From the NCBI GenBank assembly GCA_017464345.1, contig JAFUAH010000004.1, forward strand, positions 1,269 to 65,268: a stretch of DNA of 64,000 nucleotides, written 5' to 3'. Source of the stretch: Bacteroidaceae bacterium (GTDB taxonomy: Bacteria; Bacteroidota; Bacteroidia; Bacteroidales; Bacteroidaceae). The notes beneath the pieces are model-generated. The model worked only from the letters and a program-made list of their open reading frames with translations. It had not been told where the DNA came from and made no database searches. Positions 16,393 to 29,306 of the stretch are shown piece after piece. Within the stretch, counting starts at the first letter, position 1. Every line of letters begins with the position of its first letter. The position numbers were made by a program, and so were the translations under genes.

Positions 16393-18363
16393 GTGAAGAA
16401 ACTCTGTACAATACTGGCTATAGTTCTTTTGTGCTTTCAAGGAACAGCGCAAAATATCTACACGTGGCAAGATTTTGTGAACGAGATATCTGACGACGCG
16501 TATGCCGAGGAGCAGGGCTGGACGGAGCAGATGGAGGAACTGGCCCTGCTGGCGGCGCATCCCATGGACATTAACACGGCCACACAAGAGCAGTTGAGAC
16601 AGTTACCCTTCCTTACAGATAAACAGATAGAGGAGATACACGAATATGTGTTCCTGCACCGAGGTATGCGCTCGATAAGTGAATTAATGGCCATTTCATC
16701 GATAGATTTTCGCACCCGGCGGTTCCTTTCGCTCTTCCTTTATGCCGACCAAGCGGCGTTTGCCCGTCGAGATACACTGACACTGAAAAGCCTGCTGCAC
16801 AATAGCCGACACGAGGCTGCCGTGCGCATGGACATCCCATTATATTATCGCGATGGATATAGTTATCCCCCCCAACAGGGAGGTTACAATGGCAGTGCCC
16901 TGTACAACAACGTACGCTATCGGATGAAGAGTCAGCAGCACTTGGACCTCGGGCTATTGGCTGAGAAGGACCAGGGCGAACCCTTTCGCAAAAACAGCGG
17001 ATGGGACCACTACGGACTGCACGTGATGGTGCGTGACATAGGCATACTGCGCACGGCCATCGTGGGCGACTACAAGATGGGGTTCGGCGAGGGACTGGTG
17101 GTGAACACGGGCTTCACGACGGGAAAATCCAGTCTGATGGGACGTCCCAGCCAGGGCATCCGTGCCCATCAGGGACTGGACGAAGTGAACTTTTTCCGAG
17201 GTGGGGCCGCCACATTCCGAGTGAAGAAAGCGGAGCTAACGGCCTGGGTGTCGCACCGAAAACTGGATGCCACACTGAACAGCGACGGCACCGCACGGAC
17301 GCTACTCACCTCAGGACTGCACCGCACGGACAGCGAACTGGACAAGAAGGGTAACCTGGGCAGTACCCTGGCCGGAGGCAACGTGGCGTGGCAGCATAAG
17401 GGTGTACACCTCGGTGCTACGGGCTATTTTCAGCGGTTTCATCCGAATTTGTCGCCTGGCACAGCCCTCTATCGACGCATCTATCCAATGGGGCGAAACT
17501 TCGGTGTGGTGAGCATGAACTACGGCTACACCCACCTCTGGTTTTCCGTATCGGGCGAGACGGCCTACAGCACTAATCAGGGTGGATGGGCCACGCTGGA
17601 ACGTGCGAGTTGGAAAATCAGTCCCCGATATACCCTGAGCGGGTCGTATCGCTTCTATTCATACAAATACTACTCTTTCTATGCCTCTGCCATCGCGGAA
17701 AACAGCCACGTTCAGAACGAAAGCGGTGCCACGCTACGACTGGATGCCACGCCCGTGGGGCGTTTGTCGACGACCGTCTACGTCGACTTCTTCTATAATC
17801 CCTGGCCGACCTACACGACACCCCGCAGCAGTAGTGGACAGGAACTGACGGCCACGATCCAATATCAGTGGCGACAGCATCATACACTGTCGGTACGCTA
17901 TCAGTTAAAACACAAGGAACAATACGACCTCATGCGCTGGCACAACCGACTGCGACTGCAATACGTCTGGGCCAAAGCATCCTGGAGCCTACGGAGTCTG
18001 CTGAACCTGCACGCCATGGACGGCGACCGGCCGGGCTACGCTCTCTCGCAGCTGGTTCGCTACAAGCATACCACAGGGGACGTAGCCGTCATGGCCAGCT
18101 ACTTCGACACGCCCAACTACGACACTCGGGTCTTCGTCTATGAGCCCACGCTGAGCAACATGTTCCGCTATCCGTCGCTCTACGGAAGGGGAATCAGGTT
18201 GTCCGCCGTGGGCCGTTATTTTGTCTGGCACCGCCGCCTCTGTCTGGAAGTGCTCATCGGCAGCACCCGCTTCACCGACCGCAAAGTCCAAGGGTCGGGA
18301 ATGCAAAAAATCCGTAGTCCCTGGAAGAGTGACATCTCTGCCCAGATAGGACTACGGATATAA
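16393..18363 (+). CDS. Helix-hairpin-helix (ComEA-like) domain protein with large C-terminal beta-rich region
   Basis: GTG start and signal peptide KKLCTILAIVLLCFQGTAQ. The HhH segment is MDINTATQEQLRQLPFLTDKQIEEI...SISELMAISSI. About 500 aa follow with alternating aromatic/polar beta-strand-like patterns. Confidence 0.7.
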   Translation: MKKLCTILAIVLLCFQGTAQNIYTWQDFVNEISDDAYAEEQGWTEQMEELALLAAHPMDINTATQEQLRQLPFLTDKQIEEIHEYVFLHRGMRSISELMAISSIDFRTRRFLSLFLYADQAAFARRDTLTLKSLLHNSRHEAAVRMDIPLYYRDGYSYPPQQGGYNGSALYNNVRYRMKSQQHLDLGLLAEKDQGEPFRKNSGWDHYGLHVMVRDIGILRTAIVGDYKMGFGEGLVVNTGFTTGKSSLMGRPSQGIRAHQGLDEVNFFRGGAATFRVKKAELTAWVSHRKLDATLNSDGTARTLLTSGLHRTDSELDKKGNLGSTLAGGNVAWQHKGVHLGATGYFQRFHPNLSPGTALYRRIYPMGRNFGVVSMNYGYTHLWFSVSGETAYSTNQGGWATLERASWKISPRYTLSGSYRFYSYKYYSFYASAIAENSHVQNESGATLRLDATPVGRLSTTVYVDFFYNPWPTYTTPRSSSGQELTATIQYQWRQHHTLSVRYQLKHKEQYDLMRWHNRLRLQYVWAKASWSLRSLLNLHAMDGDRPGYALSQLVRYKHTTGDVAVMASYFDTPNYDTRVFVYEPTLSNMFRYPSLYGRGIRLSAVGRYFVWHRRLCLEVLIGSTRFTDRKVQGSGMQKIRSPWKSDISAQIGLRI

Positions 18364-18412: not shown

Positions 18413-19078
18413 TTAGCTATTTTCGTTTTTAATAAATCCCTTCACCTTATCCTTCCAGTTCTTCTTATCCTGATTCACGATAATTTGTGCCACCTTGTCG
18501 CCTGCTCGTACGGTAATGAGCCCTGAACGATTCTCGCTACCGTCGTTACTACTGGCTTCAACGGCTATTTTACCATTTGCCGTGTAGACGGTAATCCAAT
18601 CAGGCTGTGAGACTACGGACCACTCCTCAACATTGCAGGTGACCTTTACGTCCTGCTTGAATCCGCTCTTAGGCTTGGCCTTGAAGTCAAGTCTCGACGG
18701 TTCGACAAAAAGCTGTATTTCTACACGTTTTTCCTCCTTCTGCCTTTCTTTTACTTCCTTCTGGGACTGGACAGATACAGCAGTATCAGCCATTTTCTTA
18801 TCGGTAGATACTGGCTGTAATCGCTTGATAGTCTGCTCACATTTCTTTATTTGCTTGTCGCACTTGGCAGTGTTTTCTTCCACATTCTCCTTTGTCTTGG
18901 CATACGCCACTTTGGCTGCCTTGAACTTTAGAATGGCTGCTTGCTGCTTACTCTTTCCGTACTGTTTTTGCAAAGCCAAACCCTCGTTGTACAATTTGTC
19001 TCCCACTGTTTTTTGGCCGAATAACATCATTGGAGAGAGAAACATAAGGATGTAAAGTAATAATCTTAAATTCTTCAT
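18413..19078 (-). CDS. Lipoprotein/secreted protein with C-terminal BACON-like domain
   Basis: Signal peptide present. The C-terminus is ...WSVVSQPDWITVYTANGKIAVEASSNDGSENRSGLITVRAGDKVAQIIVNQ. It lies 14 nt downstream of the kinase gene. Confidence 0.65.
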   Translation of the reverse strand: MKNLRLLLYILMFLSPMMLFGQKTVGDKLYNEGLALQKQYGKSKQQAAILKFKAAKVAYAKTKENVEENTAKCDKQIKKCEQTIKRLQPVSTDKKMADTAVSVQSQKEVKERQKEEKRVEIQLFVEPSRLDFKAKPKSGFKQDVKVTCNVEEWSVVSQPDWITVYTANGKIAVEASSNDGSENRSGLITVRAGDKVAQIIVNQDKKNWKDKVKGFIKNENS

Positions 19079-19092
19079 TTTTGCAATATATT

Positions 19093-20541
19093 TTATTCTG
19101 AAATAATGTCAGCATTTGCTGAAAGATATGTATCTATGTGGCGGGCACGCTCGGCATAGGCCTGTGCCAGTTCAGTTTCGCCCAGCCCAGCAAAATCCTC
19201 AGCTTGTAGGGCCAAGCTCTGTCGGGCAGCATCCAGCTGTGCACCCACGTTTCTAAGGTCCGACTCCACCTTGAGGGCGAGGTCCTGCATGTCCTCTACC
19301 CGAGCTACTTCCAGAGCCTCGGCATAGAGGCGATGGGAGGTTATCAGATAGTTTTCGTAGTTTTCCATATCCTGGTCAGATCCCACGGTCTTGGCCGAAT
19401 CGGCTATGCAGACAAGCGAATCTATCTGATTCTGTATCATCTCATGGTGAATCATGGCCAGTTGTTCAGTTTCCTGACGGCGAACGGCAGACAGGTGATT
19501 GGAGACCGCTACGCAGATGCCGACGATGAGCAGCAGTGCCGCCAGTGTGCCCCCTGCAGCGATGACCAGTGGTTTAGGAATGTGTGGTCTGCCTCCTCCC
19601 TCACGGGTCTGCATTGTCTCCAAGGCGACGCGCATCTGGGCCGAACTCTGGTAACGCTGTTCCTGCCGTTTGGCACAGGCCTTGGCGATGATGTCCCGTA
19701 GGGCTTTGTTCTTGATTACGCCCAGTGGCAGTTTGGCCTTGAGCTGCTTCTCCAGAATTTCATGGCGAGCTCCGTCAAAAGGTGTGTGTCCTACAAGACA
19801 CTGATACAACAGAATGCCCATGGCATAGATATCGGTAGTCTGGTTTTGGTTCTTCACGTCTCCCAGAGCCAGTTCAGGTGCCGCGTACTCGGGTTTCCCC
19901 ATGAAGGCACCAGCCACGGTCAGCCCCTTGTCATTGGTCGTCAGGTTGTTCATCTGCTTGGCAATGCCAAAGTCGATGAGTTTGATGTGGCGGTCTGTCG
20001 TGAGCATGATGTTCGAAGGATCAATGTCACGATGGATGTAGCCTGCATCGTGCAGGGCCATGAGTCCAGAAAGCACGTTCTTCACCACGATGCGTGCAAA
20101 ATATTCAGGATCGTTCCTGTAGTAGCCTAGCATCTCCACAGCGTATGGGACATCCTGTCCGTCCCGGTCTTTCACCTTCCCCTCAAGCACATCGGAGAGC
20201 GAGACACCCGTCAGCAGTTCGCTCACCACGTGGTAGTGTTTGCGTACTTCCCCCGTTACGCTTGTTTCCTCAAGTTCGATGAAGCCCAGCATCTCCACTA
20301 GATTATCGTTACGGAGCTGTATGGCGGCCTCGCGGCGGGCACGCTCTATAGCATGGGCTGGAAGGTCGGCATACATGAACTTGATGGCTACGGGCCTACT
20401 GCTGCCAGTGCGCTCATCTACGCAGATGCCCTTGTATACCTGGCCCATACCTCCGACACCGATGGGCTGGTCATCGGAATTCACTTGATAGTAGACACCT
20501 CGCTGTCTTTCTTCTCTTCCTTGTATCTTTACGTATGGCAT
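19093..20541 (-). CDS. Hanks-type Ser/Thr kinase, bitopic, with about 130-aa extracytoplasmic helical tail
   Basis: Motifs are IGVGGMGQVYKG, VAIKF, HRDIDPSNIML, DFGIAK and GKPEYAAPE. The TM segment is LVIAAGGTLAALLLIVGICVAV. The start overlaps the PP2C stop (TAATG). Confidence 0.85.
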   Translation of the reverse strand: MPYVKIQGREERQRGVYYQVNSDDQPIGVGGMGQVYKGICVDERTGSSRPVAIKFMYADLPAHAIERARREAAIQLRNDNLVEMLGFIELEETSVTGEVRKHYHVVSELLTGVSLSDVLEGKVKDRDGQDVPYAVEMLGYYRNDPEYFARIVVKNVLSGLMALHDAGYIHRDIDPSNIMLTTDRHIKLIDFGIAKQMNNLTTNDKGLTVAGAFMGKPEYAAPELALGDVKNQNQTTDIYAMGILLYQCLVGHTPFDGARHEILEKQLKAKLPLGVIKNKALRDIIAKACAKRQEQRYQSSAQMRVALETMQTREGGGRPHIPKPLVIAAGGTLAALLLIVGICVAVSNHLSAVRRQETEQLAMIHHEMIQNQIDSLVCIADSAKTVGSDQDMENYENYLITSHRLYAEALEVARVEDMQDLALKVESDLRNVGAQLDAARQSLALQAEDFAGLGETELAQAYAERARHIDTYLSANADIISE

Positions 20542-21677
20542 TATTTCGATTTCTTTTTCAGTTTGTCTATTTCCGTTCTCAGCAATACCGATTCTTTCCG
20601 GAGCGAGTCGTTTTGCTCTTGCAGCGAATCCACCTTTCCTTGCAGGCAGACCTCATTCTCCCTAAGCGACTCGTTTTCTGTCAGTTGCTGCTTGTAGGTC
20701 TGATCACTGGAGGCAGTACGTGCCACCAAACTTTGTCGCAGTTCGTCACACTGCCGTGTCAGTTTCTCGACTTGGGCAGAGAGTTGTTGAACCTCTCCTG
20801 ACTTATCGTCTCTGAACAGCAGTGCACCATTACACAGAATGCTTAGCAGGAGTAAGCCTGCCAGTGTAGCGAATATAGTCTTGGTCTTCATATTCCATTT
20901 ATCTTTTAATGTAGAGTCTATCCCCATCTCTATCACAGCCAGTGTGTGATTGTCATAGTGCCCACCAGATGTCGTGCCTATGTTGTCAATTTCTCTTTGC
21001 AAGTTCTCCACCAGGTTGTCCATCGCCACTCCATTGCCTAGGCGTTGGAGCAAGTCGGGATGTGGCATCTCCCCCCATACACCGTCCGTGCACAAGAAGA
21101 AACGATCACCCTTCTGGTAGGGCACGAATGTTATCTCTGCCACATGATTGCTCGTATTGCCTAGTGCCCGCGTGATAACGTTCGACTGTGGGGAAAGGCG
21201 TGCCTGCTCCTCATTCAGAGCCTTGGCCATGACCAATTCGGCCACAAGGGAGTGATCCCGCGTACGAAAGGCTAGTTTGCTCCCATTCATCCGGTAGCAA
21301 CGGCTGTCACCAAGGTGTGCAACGGCTGCGGAATCCTCATTTACAAGTACGGCCACCAACGTGGATCCCATACCACGCAGGTGGGGCTCTTCGTCCATCT
21401 TGCGGTATAGAACATCATTGGCTCGCGACGTTGCCAACTTGATTACATCCTCGCGCGATGCTTGTGGTGAACTTTCGTAGATGGTCTGCATGAATACTTG
21501 TTTGGCCAGGTATGAAGCCATCTTTCCACCAGGACCTCCGCCCATGCCGTCGCAGACAACGAGCAGGAAGCCATGCGGTGTATCAGTCCAGCCCACATCA
21601 TCCTGATTTTCGGGCCGTCCACCAATCAGCGACGATGCATAGCCTGTAATGGGGTATTTTTTGGATTCTATCTGCAT
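20541..21677 (-). CDS. PP2C-family Ser/Thr phosphatase, bitopic, C-terminal coiled coil
   Basis: Motifs are GGRPENQDD, VCDGMGGGPGG and LCTDGVWG. The TM segment is IFATLAGLLLLSILCNGALLF, followed by a heptad-rich tail. Confidence 0.85.
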   Translation of the reverse strand: MQIESKKYPITGYASSLIGGRPENQDDVGWTDTPHGFLLVVCDGMGGGPGGKMASYLAKQVFMQTIYESSPQASREDVIKLATSRANDVLYRKMDEEPHLRGMGSTLVAVLVNEDSAAVAHLGDSRCYRMNGSKLAFRTRDHSLVAELVMAKALNEEQARLSPQSNVITRALGNTSNHVAEITFVPYQKGDRFFLCTDGVWGEMPHPDLLQRLGNGVAMDNLVENLQREIDNIGTTSGGHYDNHTLAVIEMGIDSTLKDKWNMKTKTIFATLAGLLLLSILCNGALLFRDDKSGEVQQLSAQVEKLTRQCDELRQSLVARTASSDQTYKQQLTENESLRENEVCLQGKVDSLQEQNDSLRKESVLLRTEIDKLKKKSK

Positions 21678-21691
21678 GTATCAACTTTTTC

Positions 21692-22318
21692 TCATAAGTT
21701 GGCAAAGATAACCATGACGGAAAAGACAATAATTGCAATGGAGAGGAAAAAGAAAGCCATCCCCCAACCATCCCACGTATCCTGTGCTTCGTTAAATGCC
21801 TCCGCATTCTGCCATCTGCGGTTCTCCCATGCCAGTCTCCGTCCTTGTACGCCGAAAATGATGCTGGGGATGAGTGTCCAGCCCACTGCTATATTGACAA
21901 GAAAGGCCCACCAGCAACCATTAAAAAAGCCCCACAGAGGATAGAACATGAAAGCTCCCCAGCTCCACTCGTCAATCTCGGGCTGAACTTCGGGCATGGG
22001 AGGGGTGATGGGCTGGACTACTACGGGTGGGGTGAAGACAGGTTCGGGTCGACGTGGCGGAAAAAATTGGTCTATCTGGTTCCATGTGACGGGATATTGC
22101 CCCGCCACCATGATAGTGTCACCGTGGTGGATGGGCACGGCTCTGTTCTTCACATTGATGTTATTTATCAACGTGCCGTTAGTACTGGTGTCACGATACA
22201 TCAGCTGGCTACCGTCGTAGTAGAGCGTGGCATGGTACTTGCTGGCATATTGGCAATGGTCATCCAGATAGATATCGCTGTTCTTCGAGCGACCGATGGT
22301 TACCTCTCTTATTGTCAT
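21692..22318 (-). CDS. FHA-domain protein with Pro-rich linker and Trp-rich two-helix membrane module (DUF2628-like)
   Basis: The FHA part is IGRSKNSDIYLDD...HATLYYDGSQLMYRDTSTNGTLIN. The C-terminus is WSWGAFMFYPLWGFFNGCWWAF. Confidence 0.8.
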   Translation of the reverse strand: MTIREVTIGRSKNSDIYLDDHCQYASKYHATLYYDGSQLMYRDTSTNGTLINNINVKNRAVPIHHGDTIMVAGQYPVTWNQIDQFFPPRRPEPVFTPPVVVQPITPPMPEVQPEIDEWSWGAFMFYPLWGFFNGCWWAFLVNIAVGWTLIPSIIFGVQGRRLAWENRRWQNAEAFNEAQDTWDGWGMAFFFLSIAIIVFSVMVIFANL

Positions 22319-22330
22319 GTTTGCTCTCTC

Positions 22331-23707
22331 CTATTGTGATATGTTAAGAATGATTGCACGCTTGTTTTTGGTATCGTACAGGGCAAATGTACCCGCACCG
22401 CCGACCATGTATTCTGCCTTCGTGGTGCCATTTATGCTTGTCTCCACATTGTAGGCACGGACTACTGAGTTTGCCAGGTCCTTGTAGGTAAAACCGTAGG
22501 TCTTTACTTTTTTCTTCTCGGACAGCAGTTTTACTTTCACTAGCTGATAAGCCTCTGCATTATTGCCCACCCCCGCCAAGTGGTATTCCACGCTGACTTT
22601 GGTGCTGCCTGTGCCTGTCGGGGATATACTGAGAGGGATGCTGAGACTGTCCAGCGCCAGTTGCTCATCCACCTCCTTTACTCCGACGAAGGTGGCTGGC
22701 TGGCGGTTCACCATCGCCTCGCCTTCTGCCAGTATGACATCGAAAAGAGGGTTGAACTTGGGATTCTTCTCACGTCTCAGGCTGACGAATTCAGACATGC
22801 TTACCTTGCGCATGTCGCCAGAAACAGTTCTGACCAGAAGGTAGTTCTCCGAGTCCTTCTGGCTCATATAGCTCTGTTCCAAGACTATGCCACGTACTTC
22901 ATCGTTGTATGTAGTATGTACTATATCCAGCAGTTCGCTCTGCTCGAAAATGTCTTGTGAGGCATTCACGGGATGGTATGTGTACTTGACAATGTCGTTT
23001 ACCTTGAATGTCTCTGTCAGCCCTCCCCTTACATACAGGCTTTGGGTGTACTTGGTTTCGTCAGCAGGCTGTCCATCCACGCTTTCCCCTGACTGTAGAC
23101 GGTAGGTACAGTCAATGCCGGAAAGGGCGTTCTTAGCTCGACGATTGGTCTTGATGACGGCCACGTCATCCCAGGAGAGGATGTATGTATTTGGGGAGAG
23201 TTCCAAGTATTTCACCTTGATACCCTTCTCCAAGACTTTCACCTTGGGAATGTTGCGCTTCTGCTGAAGATAATAGGAGAAGCGATGGACTTTGGCAGGC
23301 TTCGCATCATCAGCACTCTTATCAACGTATGTGGAGTCGTCGCCCTCATTGTCTGACCATTCGGCAACAGAGTCGACTTCTGCCTGAAAGCCTGTGAATG
23401 TAATGCTATTAAGCGTCAGTGTCTTTTTGCTACCAACTCTGTCATAAGCATCATTCTCACTGGCCCATTTTGCCCAAGCCTCATCCAGACTGTTCTCATC
23501 ATATACATGGAAACCGATATCAACCTTTGCACCGTCTATCATAATGGTAGCATTTTCGGAACAGAATATCAACCGGCCATCCCCTGACTGCTGGACATAA
23601 CCATTTAGGAGAGAACCATTCTTAAGGTACAGGTGCTGAACGACCTGCGCCTTAGCCACCATAGCCATTGCCAAGGCAGAAATGAGGATGAAAATATTCT
23701 TTTTCAT
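22331..23707 (-). CDS. Secreted protein of unknown function
   Basis: Signal peptide MKKNIFILISALAMAMVAKAQ. I recognise no motif. It is embedded in the operon with 9-12 nt gaps. Confidence 0.7.
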   Translation of the reverse strand: MKKNIFILISALAMAMVAKAQVVQHLYLKNGSLLNGYVQQSGDGRLIFCSENATIMIDGAKVDIGFHVYDENSLDEAWAKWASENDAYDRVGSKKTLTLNSITFTGFQAEVDSVAEWSDNEGDDSTYVDKSADDAKPAKVHRFSYYLQQKRNIPKVKVLEKGIKVKYLELSPNTYILSWDDVAVIKTNRRAKNALSGIDCTYRLQSGESVDGQPADETKYTQSLYVRGGLTETFKVNDIVKYTYHPVNASQDIFEQSELLDIVHTTYNDEVRGIVLEQSYMSQKDSENYLLVRTVSGDMRKVSMSEFVSLRREKNPKFNPLFDVILAEGEAMVNRQPATFVGVKEVDEQLALDSLSIPLSISPTGTGSTKVSVEYHLAGVGNNAEAYQLVKVKLLSEKKKVKTYGFTYKDLANSVVRAYNVETSINGTTKAEYMVGGAGTFALYDTKNKRAIILNISQ

Positions 23708-23716
23708 GGATTTATT

Positions 23717-25291
23717 CTATTTTCTGTGTGGATTACTTAACAATTCTTGGATATATTTTGCCTGTACACCGTAGTTGTAGCCTTGTGTTTCAGGATTCCC
23801 CGAGTTGAGCACACCTATCAGCATACCCTGTTCATTGAATATGGGTGAACCGCTGGCACCATGTGTAGAGATGGCATTGAATCCAAAGGTATACTCTGAG
23901 GCTGCCTGTGTGATGTTACCACCATTGCTGACAGCCTGGATGCCCTTTTCGTTGTCACGCTTCTGAATGATTTCCCAAGTATCGTCCATACCCAAGGGGA
24001 ATCCCATCGTGACCAGATGATTACCTACTTTCAAGGCCTCTTCGCTGATGTCCATGGAATCTTTGACATTGACGTAAGTGCACTTTGATGTGGGAAGTCG
24101 CATCGAAACGGTCTGAACCAGGGCTACATCCTTCTCTTTCTCATCGCCTGCAGACAGGACACGACACTTAATCATATTGTCCGGGTCAAAAATCTCACCT
24201 TGGGGAACTAACGCTATATAGTCCAGTTCACCATCTACCTTTACCTGAGATATGTAGGCCGAGAGACTGGTGGCGTTGCCTCTAAAGTATGTACGCTTCA
24301 CATCTATTGTGGCAATACTCTGGGCTAAACTCTTGGATATGAGATTTTGCAACACTTCTCTTGCGTTGGTGTACAACCATGGCTTGACCACATGCAGGTT
24401 GGTTATGGCCATTCCGTCCTCTGAAATAAAGAATCCAGTACCGGAATATGCTCCGGAATTCATAGTTATCTCATTTATCCAGTTTACAAGGTCTTTGGAA
24501 GATAGGCTACTTACGTCCAGCAATTTGTCACCCGCAAGTAATACCTTGGTAGGAATTTCGAACAAAGCCATTTGCTCAGGTGTCATGTCTCCCACCGTGA
24601 CATTGTAGTGATAGACACCTATCATCATGACTAAAGAACGATTGTAGCGTGCGAAAAGTTCACCGTCATCATATTTTTTATCATGAGTACCTATCAATGT
24701 CTTCACGCCCAGTCCAAGCCCGGCAACTACTATCAGACTGGCAGCTATCTTGAGAAGCGTGGAGAGGGTATCGGCAGGCCATGATATCTGATTCCTTAGG
24801 TTTACGGGCACTCCGCCACAGACGACTGCGCTCGATTTTTTTATGCGGAAGGGGGTGTTTGATGGAATTTTCTTTCCGTCCACGGTTGTGCCGTTCTTGC
24901 TATGGTCCACAATGTAGACTTTGTTGTCACGCCCAACCTTTATGGTAGCATGGTACCGACTCACGGTAGCACCGGATATCTGTATGTCGTTCTGAAAGTT
25001 GGAACCTACACCGTAAATGGCCTTATAGGCTGAATTATCCTCGGACATGGGCACCTGGCTCCATTGCAGTTCTACATCAGCAAAGCGTATGGCATCGCCC
25101 CGACGAACATTTACGGGCTTTCCCGGCTGTATGGGCTGGTTCATGATGAACGTTCCGTTGCGGCTGTTCTTATCTTCAATCTGCATGTCCCCGTTATCCA
25201 GCATCACCAGTTCGGCATGTAGCGAACTTACCCTGTCACTATGCAGCACAATATCACAGGTCTGTGCCCGGCCTATCTTCAGCAGTCTCAT
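23717..25291 (-). CDS. Tandem-FHA / TM / trypsin-like serine protease fusion
   Basis: There are two FHA units (IGRAQTCDIVL...SLHAEL...SRNGTFI and ...SRYHATI...SKNGTTVDG). The TM segment is LLKIAASLIVVAGLGLGV. The protease triad context is ITNLHVV, DVALVQ and GASGSPIF. Confidence 0.85.
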   Translation of the reverse strand: MRLLKIGRAQTCDIVLHSDRVSSLHAELVMLDNGDMQIEDKNSRNGTFIMNQPIQPGKPVNVRRGDAIRFADVELQWSQVPMSEDNSAYKAIYGVGSNFQNDIQISGATVSRYHATIKVGRDNKVYIVDHSKNGTTVDGKKIPSNTPFRIKKSSAVVCGGVPVNLRNQISWPADTLSTLLKIAASLIVVAGLGLGVKTLIGTHDKKYDDGELFARYNRSLVMMIGVYHYNVTVGDMTPEQMALFEIPTKVLLAGDKLLDVSSLSSKDLVNWINEITMNSGAYSGTGFFISEDGMAITNLHVVKPWLYTNAREVLQNLISKSLAQSIATIDVKRTYFRGNATSLSAYISQVKVDGELDYIALVPQGEIFDPDNMIKCRVLSAGDEKEKDVALVQTVSMRLPTSKCTYVNVKDSMDISEEALKVGNHLVTMGFPLGMDDTWEIIQKRDNEKGIQAVSNGGNITQAASEYTFGFNAISTHGASGSPIFNEQGMLIGVLNSGNPETQGYNYGVQAKYIQELLSNPHRK

Positions 25292-25333: not shown

Positions 25334-25942
25334 TCACCTATCGGCTCGCTTTACGTTTTTGCCCTCTTCATTTATTTTCTTTTCAGGCTCTTTTTTCTTT
25401 TTATCCTTGCTATCCGTCGGCTTGTTCTCCTTCTTATTGGTTGTCTGGGCAGGTCTCAGTTTGGCCAACGAGTCCTTTACAGCTTTCTCAATGGAGTCCT
25501 TTCTTTGCTTCTCCTGCTTTTGCAGTTCTTCGGCCTTGCGTAACCGTTCCAGACTGTCAAGTGCCATTTCTGCCGGAGTGGGAACTGGAGCCTCTTCCTT
25601 GCTCATCCGCTTAATACCAAATACTGCCCCGGCGACAATGACCAGCACTCCAAGGGCTATGATTGCCCAGCGCAGGTAGCCAGCCCCTCCTCTGGGTATC
25701 AGATTCCAGTCGAGCCGGGCCACGTGGGCAAAGGATATATTGTCTTTGCGTGTCACTGGTACGGGCACGTTAGGTGAAATGCGGATGCCATTGACATAGG
25801 TACCGTTGGTGCTCTGGTCCACAATGGTCATCTTTCCAAAACTCTCTACGCTCAGCGTGGCATGGCGGCGACTTATGATATCCGTACGGTCGTTGATGAC
25901 AATGTCACAGCCTTGTTCTCTCCCGATAGAATAAACTTTCAT
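25334..25942 (-). CDS. FHA-domain bitopic protein with Lys/Glu-rich tail
   Basis: The FHA part is IGREQGCDIVIND...RRHATL...STNGTYVNG. The TM segment is WAIIALGVLVIVAGAVFGI, followed by a charged low-complexity tail. Confidence 0.8.
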   Translation of the reverse strand: MKVYSIGREQGCDIVINDRTDIISRRHATLSVESFGKMTIVDQSTNGTYVNGIRISPNVPVPVTRKDNISFAHVARLDWNLIPRGGAGYLRWAIIALGVLVIVAGAVFGIKRMSKEEAPVPTPAEMALDSLERLRKAEELQKQEKQRKDSIEKAVKDSLAKLRPAQTTNKKENKPTDSKDKKKKEPEKKINEEGKNVKRADR

Positions 25943-25948
25943 GTGTAT

Positions 25949-26989
25949 TTACTTTTTAGTGGTTCCTTGTATTAAATCACCTATAGCCTTGAGCTGGCCG
26001 CTCACTTTCTCGAGCGAATCGTTCAGGTGCCTGACACTATCCTGCAGCACTGATTCACGGTGTTGCAGACTGTCCATTTCTACCAGAAAATCCTCGGGGG
26101 TCTTCTTCGAGCGATATTGATACATGTTGGCTGCGATACTGAATGTGCAAAGCAGCAGTAAAGTGAGTAATAGATATTTCGTAAATTGTGTCATCTTAGG
26201 TTGTAGTTTAGAGTTTTTCTTTGTTTCCACAATGGCTAATGTAAGGTTGTCGTGACCGCCTCCGTTTTCGCGCCCGTTATTGTCGATGGTGGTGGCTATG
26301 TCGTCTACCACGGCTCCCAAGGCAGTCTTATGATTTGCCACCATTCTCACTAACTCGGGCTCGGGCATAGTGCCATGAACGCCGTCCGTCGAGAGCAAGA
26401 AGCGGTCTCCCCTCTGATACGGAAGTTCTGCAATATCCACTTCCACGTCTGGTTTCATGCCGAGTGCACGGGTGATGACATTGGACTGGGCCGAAAGACG
26501 GGCCTGTTCTTCTGTGATGACACCCTGGCGCACAAGGTCGAAGACCATGGAGTGGTCGGAAGTGCGAAAGACCTTCCGGTGTCCCCTCACCTGATACACA
26601 CGGGTGTCTCCTACATGGGCCACATAGGCAGCACGGTCTGTAAGCAAAAGCACCGTGGCCGTAGTGCCCATTCCGCGCAATGACGGCTGTTCGTTCCCTG
26701 CGGTGATGATGGCCATGTTGGCGCGGCGTATGGCTTTGATAAGTATATTTTTGCTCTCCTCCTGAATGCCTGCCTCACTGATACTTGCAATAATTTCATG
26801 TACAGCGATGGATGAGGCTGTCTTCCCGCCAGGCCCTCCGCCCATACCGTCACAGACGGTCACAACAAACCCAAACTCTGTATGCTGTGCTCCGAAAGTG
26901 TCCTGATTGTCTTTCCGACCGCCTATCCGAGATTCGCCAAAGGCTGTGAACTGGTCTTCGTCATTGCGGTGTAAGGTGATTAATTCCAT
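25949..26989 (-). CDS. PP2C-family Ser/Thr phosphatase, bitopic (paralog of 20541-21677)
   Basis: Motifs are GGRKDNQDT, VCDGMGGGPGG and LSTDGVHG. The TM segment is YLLLTLLLLCTFSIAANMY, followed by a short helical tail. Confidence 0.85.
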   Translation of the reverse strand: MELITLHRNDEDQFTAFGESRIGGRKDNQDTFGAQHTEFGFVVTVCDGMGGGPGGKTASSIAVHEIIASISEAGIQEESKNILIKAIRRANMAIITAGNEQPSLRGMGTTATVLLLTDRAAYVAHVGDTRVYQVRGHRKVFRTSDHSMVFDLVRQGVITEEQARLSAQSNVITRALGMKPDVEVDIAELPYQRGDRFLLSTDGVHGTMPEPELVRMVANHKTALGAVVDDIATTIDNNGRENGGGHDNLTLAIVETKKNSKLQPKMTQFTKYLLLTLLLLCTFSIAANMYQYRSKKTPEDFLVEMDSLQHRESVLQDSVRHLNDSLEKVSGQLKAIGDLIQGTTKK

Positions 26990-27028
26990 GATAATCGTCT
27001 CCTTTTTCTTTATTTTATCTCGAACTTC

Positions 27029-27958
27029 TTATCCTGTCCAGAACTTCCACCAGGGTGCAGGTTCGGGTAGCAGAGCGTTTTTTATTGCCTCTTTGAAGTC
27101 TCTGGCCGTCTGGTATCGGCGTATCTGTTCTTTTTCCGTAGCCCTGCGGATGACAGAGAGTAGGCGACTGGGGATGCGGTCGGGACAGGGGGGAAGGGGT
27201 TCTTTCATCTGCCGGGTCAGTGTCTCCGCCTCTGTCTTGCAGGCCATGGGATTCTTGCCTGCCAGAAGTTCGTAGAATGTGATGCCCAGTTCGTAGATGT
27301 CGGTGGTTGCATTTATCTGTACGGAAGCTCCGTTCTGTTCACGCAGTATCTGCTCTGGGGCGGAATATTCCGGCGTACCGATAAATCCGAAGGAGGAAAA
27401 CTTGTTACCACCGTTCATGCGTGCTATGCCCAGATCCATGAGGCGCACATTACTGTCCTGTTCGACCATGATGTTTGAGGGTTTTATGTCACGGTGGATG
27501 ACCCCCCGGGAATGTACATAGTCCAGTGCGTCAAGCACGGACACAATGGCATGGCAGATTTTCTCAATACGTGTCGGCGAACTATCGAATTTTCGCACAT
27601 ACTTGTCGATGTCCTCTCCCTGTACGAAGTTGCTTAGTATGAATATGGGGCCATATTCGGGAGCATACTCACAATAGCCTATCATCTCCACCAGGTTAGG
27701 GTGGCGGAAAGCCAGGGATGCCTCTTGCTGGGCACGTTCTCGTATCATCTTGTTGTTGGCATAGAAATCCTTGACACGCTTGACCGCTATCCTGCTGCCC
27801 GTACGACACCGGTAGCCGATATAGACATCGCCCATGGCACCGCTACCGACAGGTTTGTCCATCGGATTATAGCAGTACCATTCGCCCATAACCTGCAGAT
27901 AGAGGTAGGGGTCGCCACGTCGCTGACGTACGGTCTGGGATTGGTATGCAGGACTCAT
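27029..27958 (-). CDS. Hanks-type Ser/Thr kinase, soluble
   Basis: Motifs are VGSGAMGDVYIG, IAVKRV, HRDIKPSNIMV, DLGIARM and GTPEYSAPE. Confidence 0.85.
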   Translation of the reverse strand: MSPAYQSQTVRQRRGDPYLYLQVMGEWYCYNPMDKPVGSGAMGDVYIGYRCRTGSRIAVKRVKDFYANNKMIRERAQQEASLAFRHPNLVEMIGYCEYAPEYGPIFILSNFVQGEDIDKYVRKFDSSPTRIEKICHAIVSVLDALDYVHSRGVIHRDIKPSNIMVEQDSNVRLMDLGIARMNGGNKFSSFGFIGTPEYSAPEQILREQNGASVQINATTDIYELGITFYELLAGKNPMACKTEAETLTRQMKEPLPPCPDRIPSRLLSVIRRATEKEQIRRYQTARDFKEAIKNALLPEPAPWWKFWTG

Positions 27959-27974
27959 GCTTGCTCCTTCTTCC

Positions 27975-28751
27975 CTACATACCTACGGTGCCCCCGTGCT
28001 GATTTCCAGAAGAACCATCAAACCCTACAGTACCTCCTTCGGGTTGGAAGTTTCCACCCCATGGGCCTGATGCCGCAGGATCGAAGGGCTGGAAACCACT
28101 GCGTGTACGGTTGTCGCCAAAGGGGTTGAAGTCGTCCACTGGCTCTTCTTCTTCCTGCTGCTGCAAAGGAACGAAGTTTTCAGCCACTTTCAGCCCCATG
28201 GTGACAGGGTCAAGCAGGATCAGGTAGAGTTCGTAGTTGTCGCCCACGGTGATGATGTCACCGTTCTTGCATTGTACTGCTTCCAAGAAGAGACTCTCAC
28301 CGTTGAGCAGCGTACCGTTGGTAGACTGCCCGTCGGCAATGGATGCCAAAACGCGCTCGGGATTCTTCATTTTGCGCACCACAAGCACGGCATGTTCGCC
28401 CGATACGGTTCCCTCTGGAAGCACTATGTCACACTGCGTGGATTTTCCGATGACGTTCTTACCCACATGCAGTGGCCAGAACTCTCCGGCCATGGTGCGA
28501 GACACACTATACAGGAATCCCACCACGGGTTTGCCAGAGAGCACGGTATTGTTAGCAGGCTGGTGAGGATTGCTTCTGTCTGGCTGAACGTTTACGGATG
28601 GCCGCTGTCCACCCATCATGCCAGGCACCACGGTCCCACGGCCTCCACCCTGTGCCTGGGCATCTGTGCTGCGCGTATAGAAACTCGGAGAACCACCAGG
28701 GCGGGCGCCATCCATCGGTTCAAGACCCTGAATCACTGTTTTGTTTGCCAT
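27975..28751 (-). CDS. FHA-domain protein with Gly/Pro-rich disordered flanks
   Basis: The central FHA is VGKNVIGKSTQCDIVL...SGEHAVL...STNGTLLNG. It is the first gene of the operon. Confidence 0.8.
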   Translation of the reverse strand: MANKTVIQGLEPMDGARPGGSPSFYTRSTDAQAQGGGRGTVVPGMMGGQRPSVNVQPDRSNPHQPANNTVLSGKPVVGFLYSVSRTMAGEFWPLHVGKNVIGKSTQCDIVLPEGTVSGEHAVLVVRKMKNPERVLASIADGQSTNGTLLNGESLFLEAVQCKNGDIITVGDNYELYLILLDPVTMGLKVAENFVPLQQQEEEEPVDDFNPFGDNRTRSGFQPFDPAASGPWGGNFQPEGGTVGFDGSSGNQHGGTVGM

Positions 28752-29306
28752 ATTGTTTTGTATTATGTGTTGAATGACTATTCATTAAGTTTCCATCTTC
28801 AGCGCATATACAAAAAAGCGTGGGAACCACTGCTTGTTGCCCGTCCCACTCTTAGAGGCTTCTCGCATTGCCCGATATTGTGAACGAGCAACGCCGAAGC
28901 CCACGCCGATATGCAATCCTCACTACCATGTCTGTGTGGTATGGCAGGAGTGTATCTGCACATCCCGAGGACATCTACCGTTGCTTCATCCTTGACAATA
29001 TCTGAGAATTTTGCGAGAATTCCTAAGAGCCAAAGACAAAGCGTCATGAGTAAACGCCTTTCATATATGTCATGTTCCTCTGCCCCATCCTTGTGTGATA
29101 TGCCCGCCACTCTTGGCTCGGCGTGAGCTTGCACCTGCAGGGACGCAGGATACACCTGAGGAACAGCGCAAAGTTACGAATAATATCTCTATATAAAAAA
29201 GAAAAAACAAAAAAACTTTTGTATATTGTATAAGTGAGTATAAAGGAAAAAACGTTGGCAGAATTAATAAATGGATAAAAAAGACTACGGTGCCTGACCA
29301 AAATCC

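Follow-up and report, generated by a model that had tools for sequence, protein, structure and literature searches.

In Escherichia coli the protease DegS makes the site-1 cut in RseA under the control of a periplasmic PDZ domain that binds the C-termini of outer-membrane proteins (OMPs), and PDZ-regulated DegS works wholly on the periplasmic side. FHA domains act on the products of cytoplasmic kinases: in Rv1747 of Mycobacterium tuberculosis phospho-dependent FHA binding drives clustering, and in Pseudomonas type VI secretion is gated by phospho-signalling through FHA proteins, a kinase and a PP2C phosphatase. Bacteroidales are the dominant Gram-negative order of the gut and rumen, and to our knowledge Ser/Thr phospho-signalling in this order is almost unexplored. 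Here we describe a gene that joins the two themes, in a stretch of 64,000 nucleotides from a Bacteroidaceae bacterium (GCA_017464345.1, contig JAFUAH010000004.1, positions 1,269 to 65,268 of the forward strand), hereafter the window. Located at 23717..25291 on the minus strand, it encodes a 524-aa protein with two FHA domains, a single transmembrane (TM) helix and an HtrA-like serine protease domain. We read the protein as a single subunit within a cassette of ten genes and not as a stand-alone device. On balance we lean towards the view that it is the protease subunit of a Bacteroidales cassette in which phosphothreonine docking in the cytoplasm controls protease activity in the periplasm.

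The succession of FHA, FHA, TM helix and protease in the open reading frame (ORF) 23717-25291 is confirmed. The gene starts with ATG, and the N-terminus MRLLKIGR is kept in all homologues of its product. Pfam FHA (PF00498) matches two stretches, with an expect value (E) of 3.5e-34 and 117.5 bits against a gathering cut-off of 20.7, and Trypsin_2 (PF13365) matches residues 284-494 (E 3.9e-12, 47.5 bits against a cut-off of 27.6). The TM helix (residues 179-202; 24686..24757, minus strand, as are all features below unless stated otherwise) is the sole hydrophobic segment of the protein, scoring 2.11 on the Kyte-Doolittle scale over 19 residues, and lies within a continuous helix (174-202) in the AlphaFold2 model. 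One such segment occurs in 113 of 150 representative relatives, and two occur in 2 more. A previous sequence-only reading of the window had proposed two FHA domains, one membrane helix and a trypsin-like domain, all borne out by the ORF, Pfam and hydropathy; the three protease motifs that it singled out are also present, NLHVV at residue 298, DVALV at 388 and GASGSP at 478.

The protease domain, which is predicted to be extracytoplasmic, occupies residues 210-524 (23720..24664) and is modelled with a predicted local distance difference test score (pLDDT) of 80-90. When the model was compared with the PDB using Foldseek, the top 50 matches were all HtrA-family proteases (HtrA1, HtrA3, DegP, DegQ, Deg1 and MucD), with E from 3e-12 to 3e-10 and TM-scores of 0.69-0.75, the latter being normalised to the target and obtained against isolated protease domains; the best matches, to HtrA1, DegP and DegQ, have E of approximately 3e-12 and TM-scores of 0.72-0.75. 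The catalytic residues His300 (24392-24394), Asp388 (24128-24130) and Ser480 (23852-23854) follow the order of peptidase clan PA. In an alignment of 131 representatives, with identity down to approximately 25%, H300, D388, S480 and G481 are invariant (131/131); the triad that had been called apparently intact from its motifs is upheld by this alignment, and the fold is that of HtrA/DegP. We assign S480, the first serine of GAS-GSP, as the nucleophile because this motif aligns with GDS-GGP of trypsin and GNS-GGP of HtrA and because of the pattern of invariance. S482 was considered for the same role and is ruled out, being alanine in 8 of the 131 sequences, with the motif alignment pointing to S480.

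Compared with HtrA, the domain has a variable N-terminal extension (residues 235-280) and, after the catalytic histidine, a helical insert (residues 310-349; 24245-24364), evident both in the alignment and in the AlphaFold2 model. Pfam detects no PDZ domain, and the protein stops approximately 40 residues past the catalytic serine. Its scores for the HtrA equivalogs of NCBIfam fall an order of magnitude short of the cut-offs, HhoA/HtrA giving 33.2 bits against 450 and degP_htrA_DO 27.5 against 416. With respect to the HtrA/DegP/DegQ/DegS family (S1C), therefore, the protein shares the fold and has neither the PDZ domain nor the equivalog scores. Judged by its invariant residues and modelled fold, the predicted periplasmic protease would be a catalytically competent, HtrA-like enzyme without PDZ.

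The first FHA domain (FHA1, residues 1-82; 25046..25291), recognised from a Pfam stretch at 5-70 and from conserved residues in alignments, possesses the full canonical set of phosphothreonine contacts, namely G7-R8, S22, H25 and N45-G46-T47, which is conserved across the family. The second (FHA2, residues 88-165; 24797..25030) was aligned to PDB 3gqs, its best sequence match in the PDB. FHA2 keeps S111-R112, H114 and N133-G134-T135, and has Ser97 (in G96-S97) at the site of the canonical phosphate-binding arginine; the solved FHA structure 3gqs shows this Gly-Ser variant too. Across the 131 relatives this position is R in 50, S in 24, K in 19 and T in 16, and from these counts the missing arginine is a trait of the Prevotella-type branch and not of the whole family. 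The linker between the domains (residues 83-92, SEDNSAYKAI) is short and without threonine, and any phospho-acceptor must consequently sit on another protein. Conservation is as strong at the FHA residues as it is at the catalytic ones.

A bitopic inner-membrane protein, with its FHA domains in the cytoplasm and its protease outside the inner membrane, is the predicted arrangement that fits all the evidence. The 178-residue N-terminal part must stay cytoplasmic because it comprises two folded domains and no signal peptide. For comparison we used the 17 FHA-less proteins with a single hydrophobic segment among the best 150 representative relatives of the protease part; in most of these paralogues an N-terminal signal anchor leads straight into the protease, as would be expected if the domain is exported. 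Around the TM helix, the net charge of the flanks across 223 homologues is +0.67 N-terminally and -0.58 C-terminally. The cytoplasm-in, periplasm-out orientation of the sequence-only reading is consistent with all four indirect observations (no signal peptide, one TM helix, the FHA-less paralogues and the flank charge), the flank charge being its weak part, to which we return below.

Ten minus-strand genes, with gaps of -1 to 42 nt, form the operon, and the protease gene is number five. In order, they encode an FHA protein (FHA258), a soluble Hanks kinase (STK309), PP2C-TM, FHA-TM, the protease, a secreted 458-aa protein, FHA with two TM helices, PP2C-TM-coiled coil, a membrane Hanks kinase (STK482) and a BACON protein. 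The cassette therefore includes two Hanks kinases, two PP2C phosphatases and three further FHA proteins besides the exported proteins. The upstream part (25334..28751), with gaps of 6-42 nt, consists of FHA258 (27975-28751), STK309 (27029-27958), PP2C-TM (25949-26989) and FHA-TM (25334-25942). Downstream, FHA + 2 TM (21692-22318), PP2C-TM-coiled coil (20541-21677), STK482 (19093-20541; kinase motif HRDIDPSN) and BACON (18413-19078) form a block (18413..22318) with gaps of -1 to 14 nt that is found in a Prevotella-type subset of loci; these eight genes were identified with Pfam. Neither the ten genes nor their flanks encode a sigma or anti-sigma factor by Pfam.

We assessed synteny with tblastn searches of the operon products against 75 related loci. 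The order FHA-kinase-PP2C-FHA/TM-protease-secreted protein recurs in more than 60 loci, almost everywhere unchanged, from Prevotella, Bacteroides, Phocaeicola, Alistipes, Muribaculaceae, Tannerellaceae and Parabacteroides. The conserved core comprises FHA258, STK309, PP2C, FHA-TM, the protease and the 458-aa protein, with a further membrane kinase that is optional after FHA258. Across the related loci the protease gene is always embedded in a kinase/PP2C/FHA operon with exported partners. FHA258 has a central FHA domain, and in approximately 60 of its homologues the termini are near-invariant, with MSQNKT(V/I)IQGLEP... at the start and ...GGT(V/I)(G/P/S)M-COOH at the end. These termini resemble the phospho-acceptor tails of FHA switches of the GarA/OdhI type and would be the best candidates for kinase sites or FHA ligands. 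STK309 has the canonical motifs HRDIKPSN and DLG, and HRD(I/V)KPSN is kept in all 63 homologues of its family in which the catalytic loop was found. In the STK482 family, HRDIDPSN has aspartate replacing the catalytic-loop lysine; since 76 of 79 homologues keep it, this is a family trait and not decay, and the substitution means that STK482 may be an atypical kinase or a scaffold.

Immediately beside the protease gene, 9 nt downstream, lies the gene for the secreted 458-aa protein (22331..23707), a candidate partner or substrate. The sequence-only reading had described this neighbour as secreted and without assigned function, and indeed its signal peptide (AKA|Q) obeys the Bacteroidetes rule, with glutamine at +1, and the protein has no match in Pfam, NCBIfam or PADLOC. 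Its 219 homologues are unnamed or, where named, a 'hypothetical protein'. AlphaFold2 predicts an all-beta protein (pLDDT 83) with a disordered acidic linker at 109-138; Foldseek retrieved nothing from the PDB at E<=0.001, the only similarity being local and to SH3/Sm-like barrels, and a profile search of PDB sequences gave 0 matches. A dead copy of the protease was considered and ruled out, as hhalign against the protease family gave a probability of 0.2%. A homologue is present in 65 of the 75 related loci, and the protease is encoded in 72 of the 75. What supports the 458-aa protein as a putative partner or substrate of the protease is this conserved synteny.

The mechanism that we favour combines these parts. 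The co-encoded kinases would make phosphothreonine sites on proteins of the cassette, probably at the FHA258 termini or in juxtamembrane linkers, and the protease would dock on these sites through FHA1, and perhaps FHA2. Docking would set the clustering or oligomeric state of the protease in the membrane, and this would in turn gate proteolysis, because HtrA proteases work as oligomers. The target would be periplasmic, most plausibly the 458-aa protein or the periplasmic tails of partner proteins (PP2C, FHA or kinase), and the PP2C phosphatases would reset the system. Signals might flow either as inside-out control or as feedback. The cytoplasmic FHA domains would take the regulatory place that PDZ has in DegS and DegP, on the opposite face of the membrane. 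In this manner phosphorylation may be coupled to extracytoplasmic proteolysis; we know of no bacterial protease for which inside-out gating of periplasmic proteolysis by cytoplasmic phosphorylation has been described.

Several observations weigh against this mechanism. The positive-inside signal is weak, with the N flank more positive in just 65% of the 223 homologues, and AlphaFold2 has low confidence in the N-terminal half of the model. Given that FHA2 is without the canonical arginine in this lineage, only FHA1 is a safe predicted phosphothreonine reader. The 458-aa neighbour, the candidate substrate, has no recognisable fold relative; in Bacteroides/Phocaeicola-type loci, moreover, three other exported proteins are encoded between the protease and the 458-aa gene. 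In loci of Bacteroides, Phocaeicola and Tannerellaceae type these three comprise a protein with WG repeats, a small OMP barrel and a lipoprotein.

The sequence-only reading spoke of an unusual signalling logic, but the architecture itself is not rare: this form predominates in a large subfamily of Bacteroidales proteases and was catalogued in 2008. A word-indexed search yielded at least 1,176 clusters at 90% identity, of which the top 120 are all full-length with the same Pfam set; where databases name them, it is as 'FHA domain-containing protein', 'FHA protein/S1-C subfamily serine protease' or 'S1-C subfamily serine protease'. HMMER, run exhaustively with the periplasmic part only (residues 200-524), gave 1,237 representative clusters at 50% identity, with E below 1e-10 for 284. 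We typed the architecture of the best 150 representatives with hidden Markov models built from the FHA domains of this family; 98 are 2xFHA-TM-protease and 15 are 1xFHA-TM-protease, the rest being mostly fragments or anchor-only forms. FHA-FHA-Tryp was listed for Bacteroides thetaiotaomicron NP_811686.1 in a table and one sentence (Tripathi & Sowdhamini, 2008, PMC2605481). That protein has an identical Pfam architecture, comes from the same bacterial order and probably belongs to the same family, although its entry is without topology, operon context or function. The sequence-only reading would have counted itself refuted by an architecture already common and annotated with a known role; this one is common and annotated, but a known role is not attached to it. 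Our literature searches, which covered FHA/trypsin-type proteins in Bacteroides and Hanks kinases in B. thetaiotaomicron, turned up no functional study, and a preprint atlas of the bacterial kinome does not mention this protease family.

The locus is accessory and patchily distributed. Named loci derive from Prevotella, Xylanibacter, Bacteroides, Phocaeicola, Paraprevotella, Alistipes, Parabacteroides, Muribaculaceae and Tannerellaceae, and cultured carriers include Bacteroides ilei, B. rodentium, Phocaeicola intestinalis, Prevotella pectinovora and Xylanibacter caecicola. In whole-genome sampling at E<=1e-20, from which the window's own genome was excluded, carriers numbered 3 of 400 genomes across the phylum and 2 of 400 across the order, where each family was sampled with at most about 4 genomes. 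Within the window's own family there were 26 carriers among 396 high-quality genomes, in 9 of 27 genera, and within its genus 2 among 28 genomes. A single plasmid record among 72,556 has a homologue, and a weak one.

A conserved, structured leader RNA of approximately 295 nt (28791..29085) lies between the upstream gene and the first gene of the operon. It has 73% nucleotide identity to the equivalent region of Bacteroides, from loci whose proteins are only 35-50% identical, and nhmmer detects it ahead of the cassette at 20 of the 75 loci. RNAalifold predicts five helices with 37 pairs, 16 of which show compensatory double changes; 95.6% of cells are paired, a share that drops to 43-54% once partners are slid by 1-3 columns, and 0 of 500 shuffles reach the observed values. 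The leader ends in a long-range stem, GGCGUGGG/CCCACGCU (28900-28907 with 28817-28824), followed by a U-run, and for this reason it looks like a leader that carries a conditional terminator. A comparison with Rfam gave no match at E<=1.

Some further features of the operon and its flanks were observed. The protein encoded at 21692-22318 has an FHA domain, a proline-rich linker and a tryptophan-rich, two-helix membrane module (WSWGAFMFYPLWGFF...), the last with no Pfam match at E<=0.01. Convergent to the operon end, at 16393-18363 on the plus strand, is a gene for a 656-aa exported protein with a ComEA-like helix-hairpin-helix (HHH_3, E 1.3e-5, just below the cut-off) and a long beta-rich region after this motif. 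Genes just upstream of the cassette vary by lineage. They include a tyrosine integrase directly upstream in the related loci L059 (5670-6884) and L063 (4132-5373), with relatives in L039 and L050; a NusG/UpxY-like protein in L041 (4822-5406), and also in L050, L060 and L064; and a TPR-histidine kinase with a LytTR response regulator in L054 (412-3324) and L044 (1555-4337), histidine-kinase relatives being present in 9 loci.

The strongest case for a different reading comes from type VI secretion systems (T6SS). In L044, from Tannerellaceae, the cassette is directly followed on the same strand by ClpV, a 147-aa ORF, TssC (PF17541, E 1.5e-134), two Hcp, VgrG, a PAAR-like DUF4280 protein, TssK and TssF; the 147-aa ORF at the TssB position has no Pfam match, and the TssF match is weak and below the cut-off. 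Eight of 75 loci have a ClpV-like gene downstream of the cassette, and a T6SSiii cluster was confirmed in the one locus that was extended. The ClpV-like branch comprises L044 (17490-19988, continued in L076; a Tannerellaceae metagenome-assembled genome), L039-L042, L050, L060 and L064, and TssR-like VWA proteins together with an ABC ATPase come after the cassette in L059 and L066. Among the 26 high-quality carriers, PF17541 TssC is present in 5, in 2 of which it is adjacent to the cassette, 8-12 kb downstream on the same strand. The whole cassette, protease included, might then be a post-translational regulator of T6SSiii in this lineage also, a Bacteroidales counterpart of TagQRST-PpkA-PppA-Fha1 in which the FHA-TM proteins nucleate or license the membrane complex. 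We consider this unlikely here, since PF17541 TssC was not found in the other 21 of the 26 carriers, including a 97%-complete genome of the same genus with a 77%-identical orthologue, nor in the window's own genome, which is 61% complete; the T6SS-linked loci, moreover, make up a branch of their own (39-42% identical) and carry additional genes, for WG-repeat, OMP and lipoprotein products, which the window does not have. PF20782 (TssR_VWA) likewise has no match in the window's genome, a result of little weight as the control was also without a match. PF05943 (VipB) was found in 0 of 36 carrier genomes and also in 0 of 150 genomes across the family, and is uninformative because it does not detect the TssC of Bacteroidota, which PF17541 does; a T6SS census of Bacteroidota by PF05943 would yield false negatives. 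As regards a T6SS phosphorylation pathway, the window co-encodes Hanks kinase, PP2C and FHA proteins, and no T6SS was found in its locus or genome. With T6SSiii in one branch and none found in this one, the cassette is best seen as a module that is wired to T6SSiii in the former but not in the latter. A 2026 review of T6SS accessory genes gives only tagA, tagB and tagC for Bacteroidales T6SSiii (PMC13584744).

The patchiness of the cassette (26/396 in the family, 2/28 in the genus) could also suggest a conflict system, anti-phage or otherwise, whose protease effector is triggered by kinase signalling, and the integrase genes upstream in L059 and L063, with their relatives in L039 and L050, a cassette resembling restriction-modification or BREX systems approximately 10 kb away in the window, and generic PADLOC matches (the kinases to PD-T4-6, the PP2C to PDC-M21C, the protease to RT-Protease_XI and PDC-M35A) all point the same way. 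Yet these matches are at domain level only and no system-specific model fits; the protease and at least two other products are exported, placing cytoplasmic phage or host targets out of reach, and near-absence from plasmids (1/72,556 records), a conserved leader RNA of its own and stable synteny across families make such a role quite improbable. Much the same low probability attaches to a regulator of envelope growth or division, resembling the actinobacterial fha-pst-pkn cluster, whose protease would remodel a cell-wall enzyme as MarP does with RipA. Its parts list matches (FhaB/FipA-like FHA + TM, membrane PP2C and two Hanks kinases), and there is a weak NCBIfam match of the protease to the MarP family (E 9e-4); the operon, however, has no RodA, penicillin-binding protein (PBP) or other peptidoglycan gene, and a cassette missing from approximately 93% of related high-quality genomes is unfit for a core growth role. 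Lastly, its HtrA-like fold and intact triad would suit an ordinary periplasmic quality-control HtrA that is merely anchored by a region whose FHA domains have no regulatory role. We give this hardly any credence, for the FHA residues are conserved like the catalytic ones, the FHA-TM-protease fusion is kept in 113 of 150 clusters, the gene is always embedded in a kinase/PP2C operon, and the protein has no PDZ and scores 27-33 bits where the HtrA equivalogs call for 416-450.

If phosphothreonine docking does control the protease, as we favour, this control of a periplasmic HtrA-like enzyme by cytoplasmic FHA docking would be a new route of information across the inner membrane. A wider proposal appears possible but somewhat doubtful: that FHA-FHA-TM-protease is the output or reset element of a trans-envelope Thr-phosphorylation pathway restricted to Bacteroidales, in which the phosphorylation state of the cytoplasm directly gates periplasmic proteolysis, with licensing of T6SSiii firing in some lineages and the whole cassette under an RNA-level switch, the leader being of a kind not described before. 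The cassette is in any case one of the most elaborate instances of Ser/Thr phospho-signalling in Bacteroidales. Its link to T6SSiii in a subset of relatives suggests a layer of post-translational control over the gut's main interbacterial weapon, a layer not included in the review of accessory genes (PMC13584744). The system is testable, since cultured isolates carry the cassette and B. thetaiotaomicron is reported to have the same architecture.

Four described systems resemble the locus in part. DegS of E. coli likewise has an N-terminal membrane anchor, a periplasmic protease of HtrA fold and a fused regulatory domain; that domain is PDZ in DegS, whereas here there is none and two cytoplasmic FHA domains are found instead, and this operon has no anti-sigma/sigma pair. 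Rv1747 of M. tuberculosis, with PknF, shares two cytoplasmic N-terminal FHA domains on a membrane effector and a Hanks kinase as presumed input, but its effector is an ABC transporter where ours is an exported protease, and the acceptor threonine in the inter-FHA linker that marks an Rv1747-type module is missing here. The TagQRST-PpkA-PppA-Fha1 pathway of the Pseudomonas aeruginosa H1-T6SS matches in its membrane Hanks kinase with a periplasmic domain, its PP2C, its FHA adaptors and its periplasmic and outer-membrane accessories, as well as in the contiguity of the cassette with a T6SS cluster in a subset of relatives; it differs in having no protease, while the FHA proteins here are membrane-anchored and most carriers are without T6SS. 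The actinobacterial fhaA-fhaB-pstP-rodA-pbpA-pknA-pknB operon also combines FHA proteins (FhaB/FipA being FHA + TM), a membrane PP2C and two Hanks kinases, but a protease and exported proteins replace RodA and PBP here, and the locus is accessory and not core. Against these, the protein belongs to a Bacteroidales family that is large and catalogued yet uncharacterised, and we would describe it as a new variation on the membrane-anchored HtrA theme.

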